In this document: positions 1 through 38,923 of the stretch, piece by piece
Position numbering within the stretch: position 1 is the stretch's first letter
How the letters are laid out: each line of letters starts with the position of its first letter
IMG/VR virus record: IMGVR_UViG_3300026848_000007
Coordinates: 1-40,361 of that record
Source of the DNA: a virus
Taxonomy: Duplodnaviria; Caudoviricetes
Direction: 5' to 3' (one strand)
DNA length: 40,361 nt
Translations under genes and position numbers: made by a program
The notes under the pieces: generated by a model
Seen by the model: the letters and a program-made list of their open reading frames with translations, nothing else
The model's database searches: none
What the model was told of the DNA's origin: nothing

Positions 1-477
1 ATGGATGAGAATAAGGAAAGACGCAGTTCAACAGACGGAGTACCACCAGGACAGAGCGACAGAGTCAGGGTGGGGGCTCGGCATAGAGGCCTGACCGGTC
101 AGCCACCGGGGGGACGGTACCAGGATATCTGCACAGTTTTTGAAACGTCAGAAAAAAAATCGAGCGACCCGCGACTTGATGAGCTGAAGGATATGGGGCT
201 TGGTGCTTTTTGGCGCGGTCTGGCTGAGCAGATTGGTTATGACGACTTCATGCTGGTGTGGGCGTCGCTTTCTGAGCAGGCTACGGATGGAGATGATGGG
301 CATCGTGTGTATATTCCTCGATTCGACTCATATCTGCGGTTTCAGAGGAACCGCTATATCGTCGCGCTGGCCAGTTCAGGTTCGAAACCGAGAGAAATCA
401 AGCATCGTGTACAAGAAGACCTGAACGAGAACGTGCATGAGATGCATATCAGCAAAGTGATACGTCAAAAGGGCTGA
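1..477 (+). CDS. Mor/C-like late transcription activator (putative)
   Basis: LAEQIGYDDFMLVW...RVYIPRF...QRNRYI followed by a C-terminal HTH-like segment resembles the Mor family layout. Lies directly upstream of the first repeated promoter motif. Start uncertain. Confidence 0.6.
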   Translation: MDENKERRSSTDGVPPGQSDRVRVGARHRGLTGQPPGGRYQDICTVFETSEKKSSDPRLDELKDMGLGAFWRGLAEQIGYDDFMLVWASLSEQATDGDDGHRVYIPRFDSYLRFQRNRYIVALASSGSKPREIKHRVQEDLNENVHEMHISKVIRQKG

Positions 478-480
478 TTT

Positions 481-525
481 CAAGCCGTTTTTACCCTTAT
501 TTTGCTTGTGCTGCCGTGCTTCAAT
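481..525 (+). promoter_or_regulatory. Putative late promoter 1 (28-bp motif plus -10-like TTCAAT)
   Basis: CAAGCCGTTTTTACCCTTATTTTGCTTG at 481-508, repeated at 8553 and 15722. Hexamer at 520-525. Confidence 0.65.
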
Positions 526-6399: not shown

Positions 6400-6666
6400 A
6401 TGAGTCACGAAAAATTTGACCGTAAAAAAGCAGAGCTCATCGAGCAGGGTTTAAGCCCTGAGGCTGCTGCTTTGCTTGCCGCCATGCAAACGGGCGAATC
6501 TGATGGCACAGTCGACCTTAACCCCGAACAGGACACCACTAACTGGACCGAGGAAGACTGGTACCAGAATAATCTTCGTCTGGGTATGAGTGAGGCCGAG
6601 GCACGGTTCGTGGCACAGGTCGAATCCGGCACTATTGACATCAACGATCAGGAGGTTGATTACTGA
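6400..6666 (+). CDS. Small acidic protein with internal duplication
   Basis: SD AAGGA. GLSPEAAALLAAMQTG and GMSEAEARFVAQVESG repeat. Confidence 0.65.
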   Translation: MSHEKFDRKKAELIEQGLSPEAAALLAAMQTGESDGTVDLNPEQDTTNWTEEDWYQNNLRLGMSEAEARFVAQVESGTIDINDQEVDY

Positions 6667-6854
6667 TGGCAGCCACGCAGCATAACGTCCAGTCACTCAG
6701 ACCCGAGGTGAAGTGCCCGAACTGTCGGAAAACGATCTTTGACGGCGATGTTATTAAGTCTCGCATTGTAAGAGTTCTAGCAAACGGAACTGAGGCGAAG
6801 TGCGCGAACTGCAAAACATGGGTATCTTTGCCATTGATCTACTCAGCCGCATAA
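6666..6854 (+). CDS. Com-like zinc-ribbon protein
   Basis: EVKCPNCRKTIF...EAKCANCKT in 62 aa, same layout as Mu Com. TGATG coupling to the upstream gene. Confidence 0.6.
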   Translation: MAATQHNVQSLRPEVKCPNCRKTIFDGDVIKSRIVRVLANGTEAKCANCKTWVSLPLIYSAA

Positions 6855-8555: not shown

Positions 8556-8597
8556 GCACAATTTACCCCTGTTTTGCTTGTCCTGATGCGGGAAACT
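8553..8597 (+). promoter_or_regulatory. Putative late promoter 2
   Basis: TAAGCACAATTTACCCCTGTTTTGCTTG at 8553-8580, GAAACT at 8592-8597. Confidence 0.65.
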
Positions 8598-8632
8598 GAA
8601 TACCGCTAAAAGGTATAACGCACCCCGAAGCG

Positions 8633-8679
8633 AAAAGCCTGGCAGACCGTCTTACCCCTCGGTCTGTCAGGCTTTTTTT
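8633..8679 (+). terminator. Intrinsic terminator-like hairpin in the capsid operon leader
   Basis: AAAAGCCTGGCAGACCG-10 nt loop-CGGTCTGTCAGGC followed by T7. Confidence 0.75.
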
Positions 8680-8691
8680 ATGGACGGAATT

Positions 8692-15721: not shown

Positions 15722-15766
15722 TAAGCGAAATTTACCCCTGTTTTGCTTGCCAAAGTGAGCCATTAT
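15722..15766 (+). promoter_or_regulatory. Putative late promoter 3
   Basis: TAAGCGAAATTTACCCCTGTTTTGCTTG at 15722-15749, CATTAT at 15761-15766. Confidence 0.65.
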
Positions 15767-15797
15767 CGGGCTTGACTGATAAAAGGTAAGCATCTGC

Positions 15798-15834
15798 AAA
15801 AGCCACGGTCCTCTAGCGAGGTCGTGGCTTTTTT
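15798..15834 (+). terminator. Intrinsic terminator-like hairpin in the tape-measure leader
   Basis: AAAAGCCACGG(T)CCTC-TAGC-GAGGTCGTGGC followed by T6. Confidence 0.7.
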
Positions 15835-24764: not shown

Positions 24765-27074
24765 ATGGCCTACACGCCGTCAACGACATTTAATTTCAGC
24801 GGCGGCAGTTACACACCGTCAACGACCTTTGATTTTTCCGATGCGCCGCCATCAGAAAACATTGGTGACATTGCTTCTACGCTTGATGATGCTGTTGGTT
24901 CATTTTCTGCTTCGGTTGCCCTGTATGGTGATATCTCAGCCTCATTGGATGACGCGGTTGGTGTGTTTGAGGGGCGAATTCACGTTGCAGGCATTATTGA
25001 TGCTGTGCTGGATGATGTTACCGGCGAGTTTGTTGGTAACTTCGTCGACAATCAGGGCGTCCTCGATGCAGTACTTGATGACGTGGTCGGCGGAATTATC
25101 GGCAACTATGACTCAAACGTACAACGCTGGATAACAGCTGATCTGTTAAGTGAGTGGCAGGATACTGGTCAGGTCGATACCAAGTCACTGATGAGCCGTG
25201 ATCAGGCAACGCGAACCGACCATAAGGCTGTCAGTGTTCAGCAGAACGGGTTAATTCTGATCACAGAAACGGACCTTGATACTGACCAGGCGAAAAGGCT
25301 GGACCATGCCGCCTGCAGTGCAGAGCAAAAAGGCACAAGCCTGCAGACCGTGGCCACTATGGTGAGAGAGCAGGGCATTAAGATTCACCGCGCTATGCTA
25401 TCCGCCAATGAAACGGCGCTGAAACGACATATCGGCTCAGCTATGGTGGCTCAACAAATGACGAAGGTGTATCCGGATAGATGGCTTGCACCAATTCAGG
25501 ATACCGCCAAAACCCAGACCGACTTCAAACGCCTGGTGTGGTTGGAGCCGCCTCCAGAGCATCGCTACACACCTCAGACAACATTCAGCTTCAGCGATAA
25601 CGGTTACATACCTGACCCGGTATATGTCTGGGACTATGGCGAAACCGCCTATCTGGCGACTGGACACAACCTCGGTGTTGCCAGAAATGAGTTCAACAGC
25701 TACTGGCAGCGTGCCACTGACTTTCGTGACAAGCTCTGTTCAATTATCGAAATAGCCCGTCGGCCTCCACCAGGCAAAAGTCCATGGATTGATTTGCCGA
25801 GACCAGACCCTGATCCGGAGCCACCATCCGGCGAGACATTCGACGTACCCATTAGGGAGACCTACACCATGAATTTTGACGTCAGCGTGACCCTTGAGGA
25901 TCTGACTGAGATTGATGTCGATAACATCAAGCTCGACTATGACCGTGACAGCTTTGCCTGGGTATTCAGTGCCGAGCTATTGGATGCTGCTCAGATACCT
26001 CTGATTAAGCCCTTGTCGGATGGCTCAGCCGTGAAGCTTATCGTGACGTTGAACAGCTATGTCTTCCATATTCTGGTCGAAAAGCTACCTCACCGGCGCC
26101 GGTTTGGAGAAAAGAGAACCACCATTTCCGGCCGTGGTCTCAGTGCCGAACTAGCAGCGCCTTACTACCAGGCCACTACCGGCATGCAGGGTGATTTGCT
26201 GGCGATTCAGCAGCTGGCAGCGCTGCATGTGCCGGCAGGGTGGACGCTGAACTGGCAGCATGTGACCTGGAACGTGCCGGGCGGTGCTTATTCCTACCAG
26301 AACCGGACACCGATTCAGGCTATCGCCGATATTGCTGACGCAGCCGGTGCATTCGTGCGGCCATCACGGGATAGCAAGGTGCTGGACGTGATTCCGGTTT
26401 ATCCCGTACTGCCCTGGAGCTTCGGCTCAGTCTCGCTCGATGTGGCCATCCCCGAAGACATCATTGTCGAAGTCACGCACAGAGACACGTCCAGACAATA
26501 TGCTAATGGCGTCTATGTGCATGGGGCAGAAATCGGCGGCGAGGTTGGATTTTGCCGTCTTAACGGCACCGCCGGTGACGTGCTGATGCAAACCTATTCA
26601 AACCCGTTAATGACTGATGTCGTCGGCATTCGAGCCCAGGGCGAGCGTCTGCTTGCCTCAGAGTTTACACAGCCGGACATCGAAGGCCTGACCGTACCCC
26701 TCGACAGCAGCACCATGCCATTGTTGGAAGTCGGCACCTTCATCGGCGCCACGATTGACGGTAACGAAACCCGGGGCATAGTTAACGCGCTGAGCCTGTC
26801 AGCCCGTCGCGACCCGCCAGAGATTTATCAGACCGTGCGTATCGGCGAAGACACAAACAACCAGTGGATTGCCTTCCAGACCTTACTGCCAAAAGACCCG
26901 CTACTGATTGGCACGCTGCAGAGCACCGATGGCAGCACGTCGGTAATGCAACTGATTGATGGTGGTGTGATGATTGTCCGCGGTACAGGCACTGTCGGTG
27001 AGAAGTATTACATCCGGTCAGGCCAGATTCAGGGCGAAGCGCCGAATATGACTCAGAGTGAGGTGGTTATTTAA
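24765..27074 (+). CDS. Tail hub / baseplate-like protein with N-terminal repeats
   Basis: Last tail gene. ISGRGLSAEL and TPIQAIADIADAAGAFV resemble hub proteins. Confidence 0.6.
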   Translation: MAYTPSTTFNFSGGSYTPSTTFDFSDAPPSENIGDIASTLDDAVGSFSASVALYGDISASLDDAVGVFEGRIHVAGIIDAVLDDVTGEFVGNFVDNQGVLDAVLDDVVGGIIGNYDSNVQRWITADLLSEWQDTGQVDTKSLMSRDQATRTDHKAVSVQQNGLILITETDLDTDQAKRLDHAACSAEQKGTSLQTVATMVREQGIKIHRAMLSANETALKRHIGSAMVAQQMTKVYPDRWLAPIQDTAKTQTDFKRLVWLEPPPEHRYTPQTTFSFSDNGYIPDPVYVWDYGETAYLATGHNLGVARNEFNSYWQRATDFRDKLCSIIEIARRPPPGKSPWIDLPRPDPDPEPPSGETFDVPIRETYTMNFDVSVTLEDLTEIDVDNIKLDYDRDSFAWVFSAELLDAAQIPLIKPLSDGSAVKLIVTLNSYVFHILVEKLPHRRRFGEKRTTISGRGLSAELAAPYYQATTGMQGDLLAIQQLAALHVPAGWTLNWQHVTWNVPGGAYSYQNRTPIQAIADIADAAGAFVRPSRDSKVLDVIPVYPVLPWSFGSVSLDVAIPEDIIVEVTHRDTSRQYANGVYVHGAEIGGEVGFCRLNGTAGDVLMQTYSNPLMTDVVGIRAQGERLLASEFTQPDIEGLTVPLDSSTMPLLEVGTFIGATIDGNETRGIVNALSLSARRDPPEIYQTVRIGEDTNNQWIAFQTLLPKDPLLIGTLQSTDGSTSVMQLIDGGVMIVRGTGTVGEKYYIRSGQIQGEAPNMTQSEVVI

Positions 27075-27679
27075 CCTTGCAAAGAATCTTCTAATTTATA
27101 TTTCTCACGATAGATAGACTCATAATTGATGATGAATTTAGTTTTTTTACCGTTCAGTTCTACGAAGCTTTTTAGCCTCTGATATGCATGATTATTATCT
27201 GGCATTCTTACCTCGAATACTCTGATTTCTCCGCTTGAAGGAATAATCATAGTGTCATTGAGACCTGAAACCGCTGCAGACTCCCATCCACTAGGAACCA
27301 GGACATTAAGTAGTTCCATTATTTGCTCAATGCCTGTTCCTGGCACCTCAGTGCCATCGTAAAGTATTGAATGAGACCTTATAATCGCTGGGCCATGCCC
27401 GTTATTGTGGACTTTTACGTCAAAAAATACATACGGTTTATTTGTAAAGGTATAGCTGAGTGATAGGTAGGGGGCTGTGGTCATTCTGTTCTCTTCTCTG
27501 GAGATATTAATCTGCCAAACGGTAAGACCTAAAGCGCAGAATGATGTGACTGCAGTTGCAGAGTAAAAAATCACTTCTGAAGTGATGCCTTCGCCGGGAA
27601 TGACTGTCAGCCATGCGATTACCAACACGCCAATAAATATCCCTACAAGTAATGCAATTCCTGTAATTAGGTGGTTCAT
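27071..27679 (-). CDS. Membrane-anchored accessory protein
   Basis: Two N-terminal transmembrane segments, VHNNGHGPA motif, AT-rich. Confidence 0.7.
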   Translation of the reverse strand: MNHLITGIALLVGIFIGVLVIAWLTVIPGEGITSEVIFYSATAVTSFCALGLTVWQINISREENRMTTAPYLSLSYTFTNKPYVFFDVKVHNNGHGPAIIRSHSILYDGTEVPGTGIEQIMELLNVLVPSGWESAAVSGLNDTMIIPSSGEIRVFEVRMPDNNHAYQRLKSFVELNGKKTKFIINYESIYREKYKLEDSLQG

Positions 27680-27969
27680 TACCAGCGCGACTGTTTCGAG
27701 TATGTAGCAAAGGCTCTAAAAGCGAAGATGATGGATAACCCAAGAAGCATAATCGGGATCAGGTAGACGAGCCAACCAATACTGCCGATGAAAGCATTGG
27801 CAATCACATCTTTATCTACTGGGTGATTGTAAGCATAGGCCCAACGATAGGCGTAGCTTGATAGAACCAGAAAGATAACTGAGACAACCACGCCAAATTT
27901 CCAGCTGTAGCCGGTCAACTCTAACAACATGTCGATGAATTTCTCTGAGGGCTTAATCCGTTTTGCCAT
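27679..27969 (-). CDS. Small two-transmembrane accessory protein
   Basis: Two hydrophobic helices, coupled to the next gene. Confidence 0.7.
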   Translation of the reverse strand: MAKRIKPSEKFIDMLLELTGYSWKFGVVVSVIFLVLSSYAYRWAYAYNHPVDKDVIANAFIGSIGWLVYLIPIMLLGLSIIFAFRAFATYSKQSRW

Positions 27970-27974
27970 GTAAT

Positions 27975-28850
27975 TTAATCCTTACTTGGTTTGTCCGTGT
28001 GGTTTGGGAGTCCTGGTTGCACACTAGTGAAAGGTGATTGTTTTGTGTCGTAATAGTCGATACTGTTCACTTTGAAGCGATTATTTAGAATTTCTTTGTA
28101 GTCGAGCTCGACATCTCTTCTATGTGTGTGTTTTGGCCGTGCTAATGACTTGGATATTTGTCCTGAGTATTGCTTTTGAGTTTTGTCATTAAGTGTTTCA
28201 AATTCATTATTAAATTTGCGTGACACTTCAACAAATGACTTGTATACCTTTCCAAAAAGTGGGGTGTCTATTGCTAGTTCATACGCATAAGTTCGAATGA
28301 ATTCACCTAAAAACTCCCTGCTACCGTAAATCGAGAGCCATGAGCCAGACTTACCAGCCTTGAGGCTTGCTACTAACTCTTCAAGAGCCGCTAGCATTGA
28401 TTTGCTATCAATTTCACCTGAGTCTCTGATCTGTCCCAATAGGTTTATTATTTCGTCGAACAGATCCGGTAAACGACTTTCATCAAAGTACTGCTGGAAT
28501 GTCTCTTCGAAATCGATACCCGAAGTTGTGTTGTCTTCATGCGTGAATTGATAAGCTTCAAGTTGTTTATTGACCTCAATAATCGTACGCATCAGAGCTT
28601 CAGGTTTTATGGCATTATTTGTGTATCTCTCAAGGGCGCCATTGAGGTTTTTGAGCCAAGCAGGCTTGTCAGGTTGAGCAAGTAAGTCGAGAAGAGTTTG
28701 AGACGAGGATAAACAGCGCTCAGCTTCAACTTTCTTTGCTTGATCATTCTTGTTGACAAACGTGACAACCAGGTTTGCAACGTTATTTTTTAGTTTGCTG
28801 TGTTTGTCAGTGATTGTACGGGCGACTTTTTCATGGGTTTGTTCAGGCAT
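27975..28850 (-). CDS. Helical hypothetical accessory protein
   Basis: 291-aa AT-rich ORF in the minus-strand operon. Confidence 0.7.
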   Translation of the reverse strand: MPEQTHEKVARTITDKHSKLKNNVANLVVTFVNKNDQAKKVEAERCLSSSQTLLDLLAQPDKPAWLKNLNGALERYTNNAIKPEALMRTIIEVNKQLEAYQFTHEDNTTSGIDFEETFQQYFDESRLPDLFDEIINLLGQIRDSGEIDSKSMLAALEELVASLKAGKSGSWLSIYGSREFLGEFIRTYAYELAIDTPLFGKVYKSFVEVSRKFNNEFETLNDKTQKQYSGQISKSLARPKHTHRRDVELDYKEILNNRFKVNSIDYYDTKQSPFTSVQPGLPNHTDKPSKD

Positions 28851-28863
28851 TACTGGTGTCCTC

Positions 28864-29427
28864 TCACTGCAGCCAAACCGGCAGCGGCAGGTAGTCCTTA
28901 AAGTCCGTTACCTTCCCATCTCGATTAACCGTGATCACTTTTTCTGAGCGAACATAGCCGCCATAGGCATTAGTGGCTCGGTAGTTAATGAGAGTTTTGT
29001 GCTCGCCTATACCGTTGAAGGTTTGAACCCATTCCAGATCTTTGAGCGAGTCGGGGTCTCTGAGTGCTTCGTCGAGATAGTTGAGGGTCGCCTTCTTTAC
29101 TTCATCTGGGGTTTCAACTTCGTCCCACAGGTCTTTTTCAGAAAGCTTTGTTGACCCTGATTCGCCAGGCAAAGTAGAGACGTGCCTTTCTATGGTTTGA
29201 TTGGCTTGTTGCTCCTGCTTTAATCGCAGTTGCTCGGCCATGCGTTCCTGTTCGATACGGTGCCGGCGCTCGGTTTCAGTTTCTTTTGCCCATTCTGTGT
29301 TTTGGTCATCTGCACAAGGCTGAGCCTGAAAACTGGTGTTACCGAGTGAGTCTGAGCATTTGTAAATCTCAGCAAAGGCACTGCCAGAGCAAGCCACTGA
29401 AAAGAGAAAAATTGCCTGTTTAAGCAT
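28864..29427 (-). CDS. Exported DUF4124-like protein
   Basis: Signal peptide ending AFA, then EIYKC.D..G...FQ.QPC. C-terminal LRDPDS..YRATNAYGGY domain. Confidence 0.7.
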   Translation of the reverse strand: MLKQAIFLFSVACSGSAFAEIYKCSDSLGNTSFQAQPCADDQNTEWAKETETERRHRIEQERMAEQLRLKQEQQANQTIERHVSTLPGESGSTKLSEKDLWDEVETPDEVKKATLNYLDEALRDPDSLKDLEWVQTFNGIGEHKTLINYRATNAYGGYVRSEKVITVNRDGKVTDFKDYLPLPVWLQ

Positions 29428-29441
29428 AAAAACACTCCGTG

Positions 29442-30191
29442 TTATTGAATTTTTCGTATTACCTGCAGAATGAGTTGCTTTGATTCCTCATCCAGTGAGC
29501 GAAAAAGCTGAAGGAGCTCGTACTCTTCTGAGTTTTTATCGACCGGTGTCGTATAAAGTGGACTGCTGGTATCGGCTATGACATCAGGTAATGAGTTGGG
29601 CAGAGCGAAGAGCTCAAGGCGGTCATTCATACTGACCAGTCCGGCGCCAGAGAGCAGCCCATCTTTTTTACTATCACCCAGAAGTTCGTATGTGCCGAGC
29701 TCACCATTCACTAAGCTATTCATAGCTTCTTGTGAAATCGTAGTCATCATGAAAGCGCTTGCATGCAGGGCGGCTTCAGAAATTGCTTTGACTCCTGCGG
29801 GTGATAGAACTTCGATAGCCGTATATTCGATAAAGCCACTTCGGGCTCTTTGGAAAGCTGATGCCATCGTCAGCACGATGGCAGTTCGGTCGGTATCGTC
29901 AACAATATAGGCAGTCCAGGCCTCCTGGGCGAGGAGGTCTTCCAACACGTCAGCACATTCACCGTCATGTTCAAGCTTTGCCAGTCGATAAGGTGAGCCT
30001 TTACCCTCTGTTAACCACAAAAATGAAGCGTTTTCGCATTTCGAAATGATGCTGAGAACGTTCTCGCTCGGTTCAGCGGTCTGATCCTTGATGTGCTTTA
30101 CCGTATCGCGAGCTATACCCATGCCGCCAAGCCATGTGTGATGGGCTCTGTCCTTTCTTAGATACTCAATACGATCAAAGAGTGAACTCAT
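29442..30191 (-). CDS. Immunity repressor (Xre-type HTH, no S24 peptidase motif seen)
   Basis: Divergent from the early operon. N-terminal HTH ending PSENVL..I...WLTEGKG. Confidence 0.75.
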   Translation of the reverse strand: MSSLFDRIEYLRKDRAHHTWLGGMGIARDTVKHIKDQTAEPSENVLSIISKCENASFLWLTEGKGSPYRLAKLEHDGECADVLEDLLAQEAWTAYIVDDTDRTAIVLTMASAFQRARSGFIEYTAIEVLSPAGVKAISEAALHASAFMMTTISQEAMNSLVNGELGTYELLGDSKKDGLLSGAGLVSMNDRLELFALPNSLPDVIADTSSPLYTTPVDKNSEEYELLQLFRSLDEESKQLILQVIRKIQ

Positions 30192-30300: not shown

Positions 30301-30474
30301 ATGTCTACTAACAGCAAATCTGAAACAGGTCGCTTAACTGCTGATGTGCCACTGACGCTAGCGCGAAGAGTGAAATCTAAGGCCGCTGAATTAGGAAAAA
30401 CGAAAAACGAGTTTGTCGGTGAGGGCATGGAGCTGTACCTGAAACAGTTAGAGAAACAACAACCAGCCGCATAG
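30301..30474 (+). CDS. 57-aa ribbon-helix-helix protein at the Cro position (not in ORF track)
   Basis: SD GGGGAG. MSTNSKSETGRLTADVPLTLARRVKSKAAELGKTKNEFVGEGMELYLKQLEKQQPAA fits the Arc/CopG pattern. Confidence 0.8.
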   Translation: MSTNSKSETGRLTADVPLTLARRVKSKAAELGKTKNEFVGEGMELYLKQLEKQQPAA

Positions 30475-30481
30475 GAATAGT

Positions 30482-30615
30482 GGTCAAGCAGGGCGGCAAC
30501 CCTGCCTGACCGGTTGAGGCTGGCTTTTCCGTACCTTTTACCTCTGAGCTTTCGCTCAAGGTCAATCATAGCCAGCCCCTTTTAGAGAGCAAGTCGAAAG
30601 TAGGGGCAAAACGAC
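30482..30615 (+). ncRNA. Structured intergenic RNA / cII leader (putative)
   Basis: Hairpin 30482-30511. Stem GGCTGGCT(30518-25)/AGCCAGCC(30570-77) encloses hairpin 30540-30562. Confidence 0.5.
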
Positions 30616-31074
30616 ATGGCCAACATGTTCGATCCGATAGAGCAGGCGAGTTACGACCTGGTCCATGATTTCAAAGGCGGTGCCGCCAGACTGGCACCGC
30701 TGGCGAATATGAATGCGGGCACCTTGCAGCACAAGGTCAACCCGACGATGGAAACCCATCACCTTCACCTTAAAGAATCCGTCAGCCTGATGAATGCAAC
30801 ACAGGACTTCCGCCTGCTGCATGCCGTCAGCGCTCAGCTGGGTTTTGTCTGTGTGCCTACCGGCAAGTATCAAGATGTTTCTGATGTGGAGTTTCTGACG
30901 CTCTACACCGCCGCTATGAAAGAGGTCGGCGACCTATCTAAAGCCATTCAGGATGCCTTTGCGGATAAACGCATCACACAAAAGGAAGTGAAACGTGTCC
31001 GCCGTGAAGCGTTGGAAGCGGTTGCAGCACTGGCTGAACTGCCAGCCCGACTGGAGGCCATGAGCGATGAGTAA
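30616..31074 (+). CDS. Phage regulatory protein, 186/P2-type CII family
   Basis: GGAARLA...N.GTLQHKVNP...HHL..E...L..T.D..LLHA, placed after the cro-like gene. Confidence 0.75.
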   Translation: MANMFDPIEQASYDLVHDFKGGAARLAPLANMNAGTLQHKVNPTMETHHLHLKESVSLMNATQDFRLLHAVSAQLGFVCVPTGKYQDVSDVEFLTLYTAAMKEVGDLSKAIQDAFADKRITQKEVKRVRREALEAVAALAELPARLEAMSDE

Positions 31075-31467: not shown

Positions 31468-32064
31468 ATGGAAACAATGGAGAGGTATCTGACCCAGCAG
31501 GAAGAGCGGCAGCTGCTCAACACTGTGGCTCGGGTGAATGATGTTTACGCCAAAAGAGACTATGCCTGGATGCGTCTGCTACGGCATACCGGCCTGCGTA
31601 TTGGCTCCTGTGCGGCTTTGACTGTAGACGATGCACAAGAGGGTATCGCTACCGGTAACCTGCCGGTTAACCCTGAGTTTGCCAAGCGTGGCAAAGGTGG
31701 CCATGTGCCACTGAACAAGGCTGCCCGTCAGGCGCTCACTGATCTGCTCAAAATTCGCCGTGAAATGGGGCATGAAAAGGATATGCAAGGCCGCCTGATT
31801 ATGGGGCGTAAACACCGGGGTTTGAGTGTTCGCAGCTTTCAGGCGCGTATGCAGCACTGGCGTGATGAAGCAGACCTGCCTGTTGATGTGTCGCCTCACT
31901 GGTTCCGTCATACCCTCGGTGTTCGCATCATGCAGCATTCCACCGCAGCCAACCCGTTGGGCGTCGTTCAGCGCGTGTTACTGCACAGCAATATTGCCTC
32001 TACTGGCATCTACACCCGACCTTCGAAAGAAGATGTTCAGCTCTCACTGGAGGCGGCGTCATGA
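31468..32064 (+). CDS. Short tyrosine recombinase (catalytic domain only)
   Basis: TGLRIGS (R), AKRGK (K), SPHWFRH (HxxR), LLHSNIASTGIY (H, Y). 198 aa. Confidence 0.9.
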   Translation: METMERYLTQQEERQLLNTVARVNDVYAKRDYAWMRLLRHTGLRIGSCAALTVDDAQEGIATGNLPVNPEFAKRGKGGHVPLNKAARQALTDLLKIRREMGHEKDMQGRLIMGRKHRGLSVRSFQARMQHWRDEADLPVDVSPHWFRHTLGVRIMQHSTAANPLGVVQRVLLHSNIASTGIYTRPSKEDVQLSLEAAS

Positions 32065-36875: not shown

Positions 36876-37058
36876 ATGTTGATTTTGACTAGAAGAGTAG
36901 GCGAGAGCCTGATTATTGGTGACGACGTGGTCGTGAATGTCCTCGGCGTTAAAGGTAACCAGGTTCGTATCGGCGTCGATGCACCGAAGGATGTGACCGT
37001 GCATCGAGAGGAAATTTACGACCGTATTCAAGCCGAAAAAGACCAACCAAACGATTAA
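36876..37058 (+). CDS. csrA: Carbon storage regulator CsrA/RsmA homologue
   Basis: [56 protein letters not shown]. Confidence 0.97.
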
Positions 37059-38723: not shown

Positions 38724-38923
38724 TGTCTGGTACCGAGGAAATAACTGTCGAATCGGTAGGGGGAATCGACGTAGAACCCACGATAGAAATGTTGTTACCT
38801 CTCATAGGTAAGCATCTGGAAAGACAACAAGAATTAAAACAACAGAATGAACAAACAAGCCGCCATTTACCTACGATCGAGCAAGGACAGGAACGATGTC
38901 AGTATCGCCGCTCAGCGTCGTGA
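38723..38923 (+). CDS. Small protein overlapping the integrase start (candidate directionality factor)
   Basis: ATG coupled to the upstream stop, 77-nt overlap with the recombinase gene. Confidence 0.4.
   Translation: MSGTEEITVESVGGIDVEPTIEMLLPLIGKHLERQQELKQQNEQTSRHLPTIEQGQERCQYRRSAS

Follow-up and report, generated by a model that had tools for sequence, protein, structure and literature searches.

We report what appears to be a second gate on phage late genes, formed by an RNA attenuator and a tiny, unannotated zinc-ribbon partner. A CII-activated transcript that carries the same RNA fold appears to connect this gate to the lysogeny switch. The known switches for phage late genes are antiterminators of the Q type or activators of the Ogr/Mor type. 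Here, we propose with moderate confidence that a zinc-ribbon protein acts as the antiterminator of both the capsid and the tail operon and that the RNA from a leftward pE-like promoter carries a third site for it, as a decoy or as a target. This regulatory module is real and conserved, and it is apparently undescribed.

The window (the whole stretch of DNA analyzed here, 40,361 nt) is a provirus record with a 186-type immunity region, in which a PF06892 CII follows a cI/cro-like pair, and it also encodes a fused protease-capsid gene and a tape-measure tail (Table 1). The closest named relatives of the phage are Methylophaga prophages. The gene in the cro position looks like a ribbon-helix-helix rather than a helix-turn-helix protein, judged by eye apart from a weak HicB match (E 0.065). 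Four low-GC leftward genes, mostly without known families, come after the repressor gene (27071-29427). The early operon holds a 198-aa tyrosine-recombinase catalytic domain (31468-32064) that is present in all 53 relatives compared, alongside a large serine recombinase at 38847.

Table 1. Positions of the features in the window, with the basis of the call where one applies
Feature	Position	Strand	Remarks
Putative late-promoter activator	1..477	+	Mor/C-like lead only
Late promoter-like element, third and weaker copy (481-508)	481..525	+	without boxes or terminator
CCCC zinc-ribbon gene, 62 aa	6666..6854	+	candidate antiterminator
Late promoter-like element, 21-nt box then -10-like GAAACT	8560..8597	+	predicted start ~8603
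Capsid leader motif: box 1, spacer hairpin, box 2	8607..8640	+	predicted cis antiterminator
Intrinsic terminator, 5' of protease-capsid gene	8633..8679	+	folding
Late promoter-like element, same 21-nt box then -10-like CATTAT	15729..15766	+	predicted start ~15773
Tape-measure leader motif: box 1, short spacer, box 2	15780..15805	+	
Intrinsic terminator, 5' of tape-measure gene	15798..15834	+	folding
Repressor gene	29442-30191		186-type immunity region
Small cro-position gene	30301-30474		upstream of cII
Hairpin P0, 3' of cro-like gene	30482..30511	.	folding
Third motif copy on predicted pE RNA	30516..30544	-	box1/box2 helix enclosed by GAGG/CCUC helix
Stem P1 of cII 5'-UTR	30518..30577	+	bulge with box-1 complement; inner hairpin P2
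Predicted leftward pE-like promoter	30565..30592	-	-10 TATGAT 30570-30565, -35-like TTGCTC 30592-30587; predicted start ~30558
Anti-SD/SD helix over cII ribosome-binding site	30575..30607	+	overlaps outer end of P1
Inverted repeat GTCG-N15-CGAC	30593..30615	.	inferred CII site; sequence
CII, 186-type	30616..31074	+	PF06892, E 3.6e-38

Motif copies in the late leaders and in the cro-cII gap

A first-pass annotation, made from the letters alone, had noticed that RNA of the cro-cII gap is complementary to two boxes in the leaders of both the capsid and the tape-measure genes, and every box was found where it had been placed. The box-1 sequence TAAAAGGTA has exactly three copies in the window: two on the plus strand, at 8607 and 15780, and one on the minus strand, at 30532-30540. 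The two-box pattern AAAGGTA-N0-30-AAAAGCC has three occurrences against 0.01 expected, an expectation that overstates the surprise because the pattern was derived from these same sites. Folding confirmed that AAAAGCC forms the base of the terminator 5' arm in both leaders, as first annotated. Both leaders end in strong hairpin and U-tract terminators (z -5.7 and -4.0), which were missed by the terminator scan and were assessed by folding.

An identical 21-nt promoter-like element precedes the two leaders (8560, 15729), and the spacing of the capsid-leader element is the same in relatives, as judged by eye. Its third copy is predicted, from sequence, to drive the terminase-portal operon, which holds the zinc-ribbon gene. 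The gene at 1..477 is a candidate activator of all three late promoters: its product is 32% identical to a protein annotated as 'middle operon regulator' in phage yong1 and has a weak Mor lead in the ESM Atlas, below the bar set there, and it matches no Pfam or PHROG family. For the capsid ORF, ATG 8692 is the probable start: position 8680 is immediately next to the U-tract, and SD-like sequence is present between the two positions. In one relative (G001), the gene 5' of the tape-measure leader (L003:15540-15720) looks GroES-like by eye.

A cmscan against Rfam, a check proposed along with the first annotation, yielded no relevant match in the window, and Rfam gave none in 40 cII loci or 19 leader loci of relatives either. 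The leaders were also considered as c-di-GMP-I riboswitches, whose consensus their letters resemble; this candidate was rejected, as Rfam has no match on the window or the 19 leader loci and the spacer loops are not GAAA.

The third copy of the motif lies on the minus strand of the gap, where box 1 sits 23 nt into the predicted pE RNA. At the place of the pE -10, TANNNT occurs in 25/29 relatives; its TA is partly fixed by the anchoring of the rows, and its last T (26/29) is independent of the anchor. Where the window has its inverted repeat next to the cII start, relatives carry a repeat of the TGTGAA..TTCACA type.

The plus strand of the gap is separately predicted to form a co-varying cII 5'-UTR structure. 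Within 29 phages, cognate arms of P1 pair better than permuted ones (-17.6 versus -13.1 kcal/mol, p < 5e-5), and so do those of the anti-SD helix (-14.6 versus -10.4 kcal/mol, p < 5e-5, n=29); two or three rows in these sets are mis-anchored (G010, G062 and probably G095), and the covariation is unchanged after pruning from 29 to 25 phages. G.U pairs are commoner on the plus than on the minus strand in both P1 (33 versus 13) and the anti-SD helix (44 versus 28). P1 spans the predicted pE -10 and can thus form on the rightward transcript only. Most of the gap complement had initially been assigned to an unpaired bulge: the box-1 complement does lie in the bulge, whereas P1 takes up most of the box-2 complement (GGCT). 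In the window, P1 and the anti-SD helix compete for their outer 4 bp only and the cII SD is predicted to be mostly blocked without a partner (unpaired probability 0.03-0.19), so that a switch between the two helices is something we infer. The P0 loop occurs in both orientations among the 29 relatives (16 versus 13). In many relatives P0 is preceded by an A-run, and it would act there as a leftward terminator.

Relatives and the zinc-ribbon gene

Homologues of the capsid gene were collected from 79 viral and 41 genome loci. CII was sought in 75 of the capsid-homologue loci and was present in 36/45 and 28/30, and most of the genome was compared for 54 phages. We sorted these relatives by eye into three groups. 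Leaders of group A are of the terminator type and carry GGYR-NAA-CG[hairpin]CG-AAA-AGCC as their motif, and the gap has the form GAGG..GGYTT..ACC..CCTC..AGCC. In group B the leader hairpins are long, their loops are rich in C and U, and a loop in the gap resembles them in sequence, in the same sense. Group C is without the gap RNA. A pattern test places the gap boxes in 29/30 group-A rows, 0/28 group-B rows and 0/7 group-C rows, a count that is circular with the by-eye grouping and in which some phages are counted twice. The link first drawn between the gap and the late attenuators is borne out and holds across the family. A quick tree of the capsids makes group A essentially one lineage, with two changes. 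One phage, G072 (L122), is a mosaic that joins a group-A backbone and leader to a group-B capsid gene; this combination rules it out as an independent gain.

The exact leader pattern has 43 matches among viral contigs, 16 of them directly 5' of a window-type capsid gene and about half of these 16 with a terminator by eye; the other matches look like chance. A blastn search of the gap region against named phages found no match, a single-protein cII scan recovered no relatives, and a loose gap pattern returned mostly chance matches, with cII nearby in 1/120 loci.

When every ORF of the window was compared across the 54 phages, the zinc-ribbon gene was the one ORF that tracks leader type. BLAST finds it in 22/26 other group-A phages, 0/20 group-B phages and 0/7 group-C phages, and a profile finds it in 25/27 group-A phages. 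The two that the profile misses are a 43%-complete fragment and G013, a complete group-A genome in which the zinc-ribbon gene is absent, the capsid leader has hairpins and no U-tract terminator, and the gap motif is kept despite the missing gene (P 0.99). The gene ends less than 300 nt from a leader in 10/21 phages.

When loci were sampled from the protein instead, motif and terminator were found together at 15/17, and the other two comprise one motif whose contig is cut and one locus with none in 323 nt. Several of these loci overlap earlier records, and others have capsids that are only 36-43% identical; both new complete genomes in the sample carry the gap motif. Two further proteins, of 114 and 126 aa (P0123, P0124), have two zinc-ribbon repeats. 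In G009 (L024:5868-6275) and G022 (L053:1374-1789), two AGCC-based terminators without a clear box 1 stand on either side of the zinc-ribbon gene.

The model of the 62-aa protein is all-beta, a small zinc ribbon with a mean pLDDT of 87, and the protein has 216 related clusters at E <= 0.001. Foldseek gave no match at E <= 0.001 in PDB or BFVD, the best VIA hit has a Z of 3.1, and the Atlas offered only unnamed clusters or low shared-feature counts. No Com profile is among the 25 of 31 Pfam families shown for 26 members at E <= 0.1, nor was one found in NCBIfam, and no antiterminator profile, BglG/LicT included, matches the protein or the window ORFs in PHROG or Pfam. An N/Q homologue was likewise found neither among 51 ORFs compared with PHROGs nor among 32 compared with Pfam; N proteins are hard to detect by profile. 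The initial remark that no N- or Q-type gene is recognizable therefore holds, yet the window does encode a candidate protein antiterminator: judged from its distribution, the product of 6666-6854 is probably the missing regulator of the late leaders.

Since group A is essentially one lineage and G072 is a mosaic, the correlation between gene and motif amounts to about two independent evolutionary events, and the gene might be no more than a clade marker. An alternative built on this point takes the gap copy to be functionally unconnected with the leaders. The overlapping demands of P1, the pE hairpin and the pE promoter would keep it in place, or it would be a relic of common descent; the leaders would answer to some ligand or to a factor of the host, and the zinc-ribbon gene would mark the clade only. 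This is what a single main lineage might produce, the P1 and anti-SD covariation (p < 5e-5) could explain part of the conservation, and AGCC/GGCT, a common terminator base, is found in 16% of other terminators. We nevertheless think it unlikely, as gap boxes and terminator leaders co-occur in 29/30 group-A rows against 0/35 others, the invariant ACC of box 1 is not needed by P1 alone, and G013 has lost the gene and the terminator together.

Box pairing in cis and in trans

Within a leader, box 1 is predicted to form a helix with box 2. The minimum-energy fold of the capsid leader in its nascent form (-9.5 kcal/mol) joins AGGU to GCCU, with the spacer hairpin and an A-rich internal loop of 4x4 enclosed by the helix, and this cis fold occupies the base of the terminator 5' arm. 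The GG/CC cis helix has a mean predicted probability of 0.91 in nascent leaders, exceeding 0.3 in 38/39. The mean is 0.69 in predicted pE RNAs, of which 25/31 are predicted to form the helix (the start of G062 is misplaced in this calculation), and 0.02 on the plus strand of the gap, where it is predicted in 1/31. With the spacer shuffled, the leader probability falls to 0.52, and 37/39 leaders beat their own control. The GAGG/CCUC helix that encloses the pE copy co-varies within phages (p 0.0003 on the minus strand, 0.003 on the plus strand).

In 30 canonical leaders, a set that we selected ourselves, the internal-loop bases AACG and CGA are nearly invariant and do not pair to the gap. In the same set 92% of cells pair, and both sides have changed in only 1/6 pairs; covariation support for the cis helix is thin because the helix has just 3-4 bp and its bases barely vary. 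The near-fixed loop bases and the pairing pattern suggest sequence-specific recognition. Leaders of a compact form, without the spacer hairpin, occur in two phages that have the zinc-ribbon protein (G003 and G072), so that the compact form on the pE RNA can also be a site. Three readings of the gap RNA had been offered at the outset, and the one in which it is a third, same-sense copy on a leftward transcript is the best supported, by the leftward -10, the CII-type inverted repeat and the box1/box2 helix on the minus strand.

The headline of the first-pass annotation, a circuit of RNA-RNA pairing between the gap and the leaders, is not the reading that fits best, and compensatory changes sought across phages lend it no significant support. 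We scored 39 leaders from 27 phages, leaving out the G007 capsid leader and a third leader of G047, both mis-located; G013 and G045 gave none, and G060 was kept as a gap-leader pair although its cII and capsid sit on different contigs. (The CII match of G045, at G045:C1:19665-20087, contains one TAG.) Cognate pairs are not better than permuted ones by pair count (p 0.07-0.17), by duplex energy (p 0.10) or by cofolding with terminated (p 0.20) or nascent leaders (p 0.22), nor are they for box 2 alone (p 0.22, pruned 0.48) or box 1 alone (p 0.09, pruned 0.30). Two scores reach nominal significance. The longest antisense match is slightly higher in cognate pairs (6.5 versus 5.97, p 0.011, unpruned), which fits the cis/protein and trans-pairing models alike. 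Box-1 similarity scored in the opposite-strand sense gives p 0.006 (pruned 0.026) among several tests made, and part of the effect may come from base composition. Neither score singles out trans pairing.

In a refined form of such pairing, the early plus-strand RNA would invade the nascent leader by strand exchange, with box 1 as the toehold and then the base of the terminator, and would so antiterminate. As an extension, the zinc-ribbon protein may clamp the three-way junction, and the CII-induced pE RNA, perfectly antisense to the early RNA, would neutralize it. A core of 4 + 5 gap-leader pairs is indeed nearly invariant in the 39 leaders, and the nascent leaders of the window are predicted to pair with the cII UTR through the boxes (-9.3 and -12.4 kcal/mol), as the first proposal of such an invasion had supposed. 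Long lineage-specific complementarity also exists, contiguous in G003 (13/13) and G072 (12/13) and of 7 + 9 bp between the gap and capsid leader of G013 (L030:9880-10000). AGCC opens every leader terminator arm as against 16% of 32 other terminators, and GGCTT is kept in G004 and G047, though P1 there leaves its last bases unpaired. Set against this, beyond the permutation results (p 0.07-0.48), are A.C mismatches in 22/39 leaders at each of the next two box-1 positions, with a G.U once in all, and a mismatch to the gap at the position before GG in 9/39. The predicted duplex can be as weak as -8.6 kcal/mol (duplexfold, G062) or -0.7 kcal/mol (cofold, G008), and box-1 similarity is significant only in the opposite-strand sense. 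That invasion part of the early claim thus keeps its favorable duplexes and lacks compensatory support, and we regard the mechanism as improbable. The odds are similarly poor, if anything a shade lower, for the complete circuit, in which the cII 5'-UTR would be a late antiterminator acting by strand exchange, the protein its clamp, and the pE RNA would cancel it both as antisense and as mimic. If true, three RNAs and one protein would make up a lysis/lysogeny circuit in which a naturally occurring RNA antiterminator, acting in trans, takes the part of lambda Q.

A further reading from the same source, in which short terminated late RNAs open P1 in trans so that the anti-SD helix shuts off cII and commits the phage to lysis, is disfavored to the point of being very improbable. 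It can draw on the overlap of P1 with the anti-SD helix, both of which co-vary, and on the precedent of StxS, a terminated late-leader sRNA (PMC7547250); but box 2 is locked in the terminator, terminated leaders show no predicted pairing through the boxes and their best cofolds use other segments, the SD is mostly blocked without a partner (0.03-0.19), and cognate pairs do not beat permuted ones (p 0.20).

Group B offers a parallel. A loop sequence of 9-12 nt is common, in the same sense, to its leaders and the cII UTR (for example L116, L180, L169), and this same-sense sharing means that the 5' end of the predicted pE RNA there would be antisense to the late leader. The gap segment of this group was mis-extracted in about 7/21 rows, and group-B statistics were left aside. 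Group B also carries a different protein of about 80 aa, which is unrelated, has no Pfam family and was found in 20/20 group-B, 0/27 group-A and 5/7 group-C phages (L095:5898-6137).

Proposed mechanism and known systems

In our preferred model, with the zinc-ribbon protein as antiterminator, the capsid and tail leaders would be attenuators in which box1/box2 pairing blocks the terminator. An activator would turn on the three late promoters, and the un-attenuated one would give terminase, portal and zinc-ribbon protein, while capsid and tail transcripts would end after about 60-75 nt until the protein builds up, which would delay capsid and tail expression. The protein would then bind and stabilize the box1/box2 fold, allowing read-through into both operons. 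Where CII is active, the pE RNA would show the same fold and most likely titrate the protein, so that the late operons would remain terminated; alternatively, the protein may bind the pE RNA and damp the establishment of lysogeny. The pE RNA, as a perfect cis antisense of the cII UTR, would also keep the cII SD blocked. The complementarity between gap and leaders would simply be the reverse complement of a same-sense site.

The main awkward result for this model is G013, whose gap boxes without the protein it explains only as a relic. The group-B protein is a further counterpoint, as its analogous gene is also present in 5/7 phages without the gap RNA. A phage-encoded CsrA (36876-37058, PF02599) was considered as the regulator and rejected, being present in just 5/26 other group-A phages.

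The leaders are reminiscent of BglG/LicT-type RAT elements: in both, a weak helix of the leader, interrupted by an internal loop, overlaps the terminator 5' arm and would need a protein to prevail. An antiterminator helix overlapping the terminator 5' arm is predicted here in 38/39 leaders; however, the zinc-ribbon protein is unrelated, the genes are phage late genes, and a third site lies on an establishment transcript. The lambda paQ RNA acts as an antisense on Q. By a similar logic, CII activity would here restrain late-gene antitermination, although through a decoy site from pE itself rather than an antisense to the antiterminator mRNA. paQ is named as a pro-lysogenic CII promoter in PMC7708051.

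The closest protein precedent is Mu Com, also a 62-aa CCCC zinc protein of a late operon, described in PMC6483171 as an RNA-binding activator that binds a structured leader and turns on the downstream gene. The window protein, in contrast, has no Com family match among the families listed for it, and no mom gene was recognized in the window. Its putative target is a terminator at several operons, as opposed to the translation-inhibition hairpin that this account gives for Com, and the motif, GGYR-NAA-CG..CG-AAA-AGCC before a terminator, is not the GAGNNCC given there.

In 186, CII activates pE through a binding site of two half-sites (PMC8538670), and pE serves the expression of cI and int (PMC8538670, PMC7708051). 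The window is similar in having a PF06892 CII on the early transcript and, predicted from sequence, a leftward promoter and an inverted repeat at the start of cII; it differs in that the motif of the late leaders is also present on the predicted pE RNA, which overlaps a cII UTR with structure of its own.

P4 CI and IsrK (PMC4825925) are likewise structured RNAs near early regulators with single-stranded parts complementary to a terminator-controlling leader. P1 C4 is an RNA of this kind too. The window and 40 cII loci of relatives have no Rfam match to such RNAs. In P4, the targets sit on both sides of CI within its own operon and bring about termination, whereas the putative targets here lie at a distance of 15-22 kb without a clear compensatory signal, and the sole other copies are the two late leaders. 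StxS (PMC7547250) is likewise a short transcript that arises when a late leader terminates early, and its control is by Q; no regulatory action is predicted for the short terminated RNAs here. By the features tested, the module is outside the Com, BglG, N/Q, P4 CI/C4 and c-di-GMP families.

No description of such a system was found in the literature searched, chiefly outside subscription journals. IMG/VR has been mined for structured RNAs (PMC10690425); six supplementary files of that study contain no match to two motif strings or to the CII accession, and the motifs may be among the unnamed candidates in its other supplements.

Taken together, these results, if the preferred model is true, would give a function to a new protein family and add a new Rfam-type motif. 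All parts of the module are short and suited to reporters, and a switch made of a 62-aa protein and a 35-nt RNA would be usable in synthetic biology. A sister lineage, group B, seems to use another small protein with another leader loop, which would allow direct comparison. For the phages themselves, a CII-induced decoy RNA would couple lysogeny to late expression.
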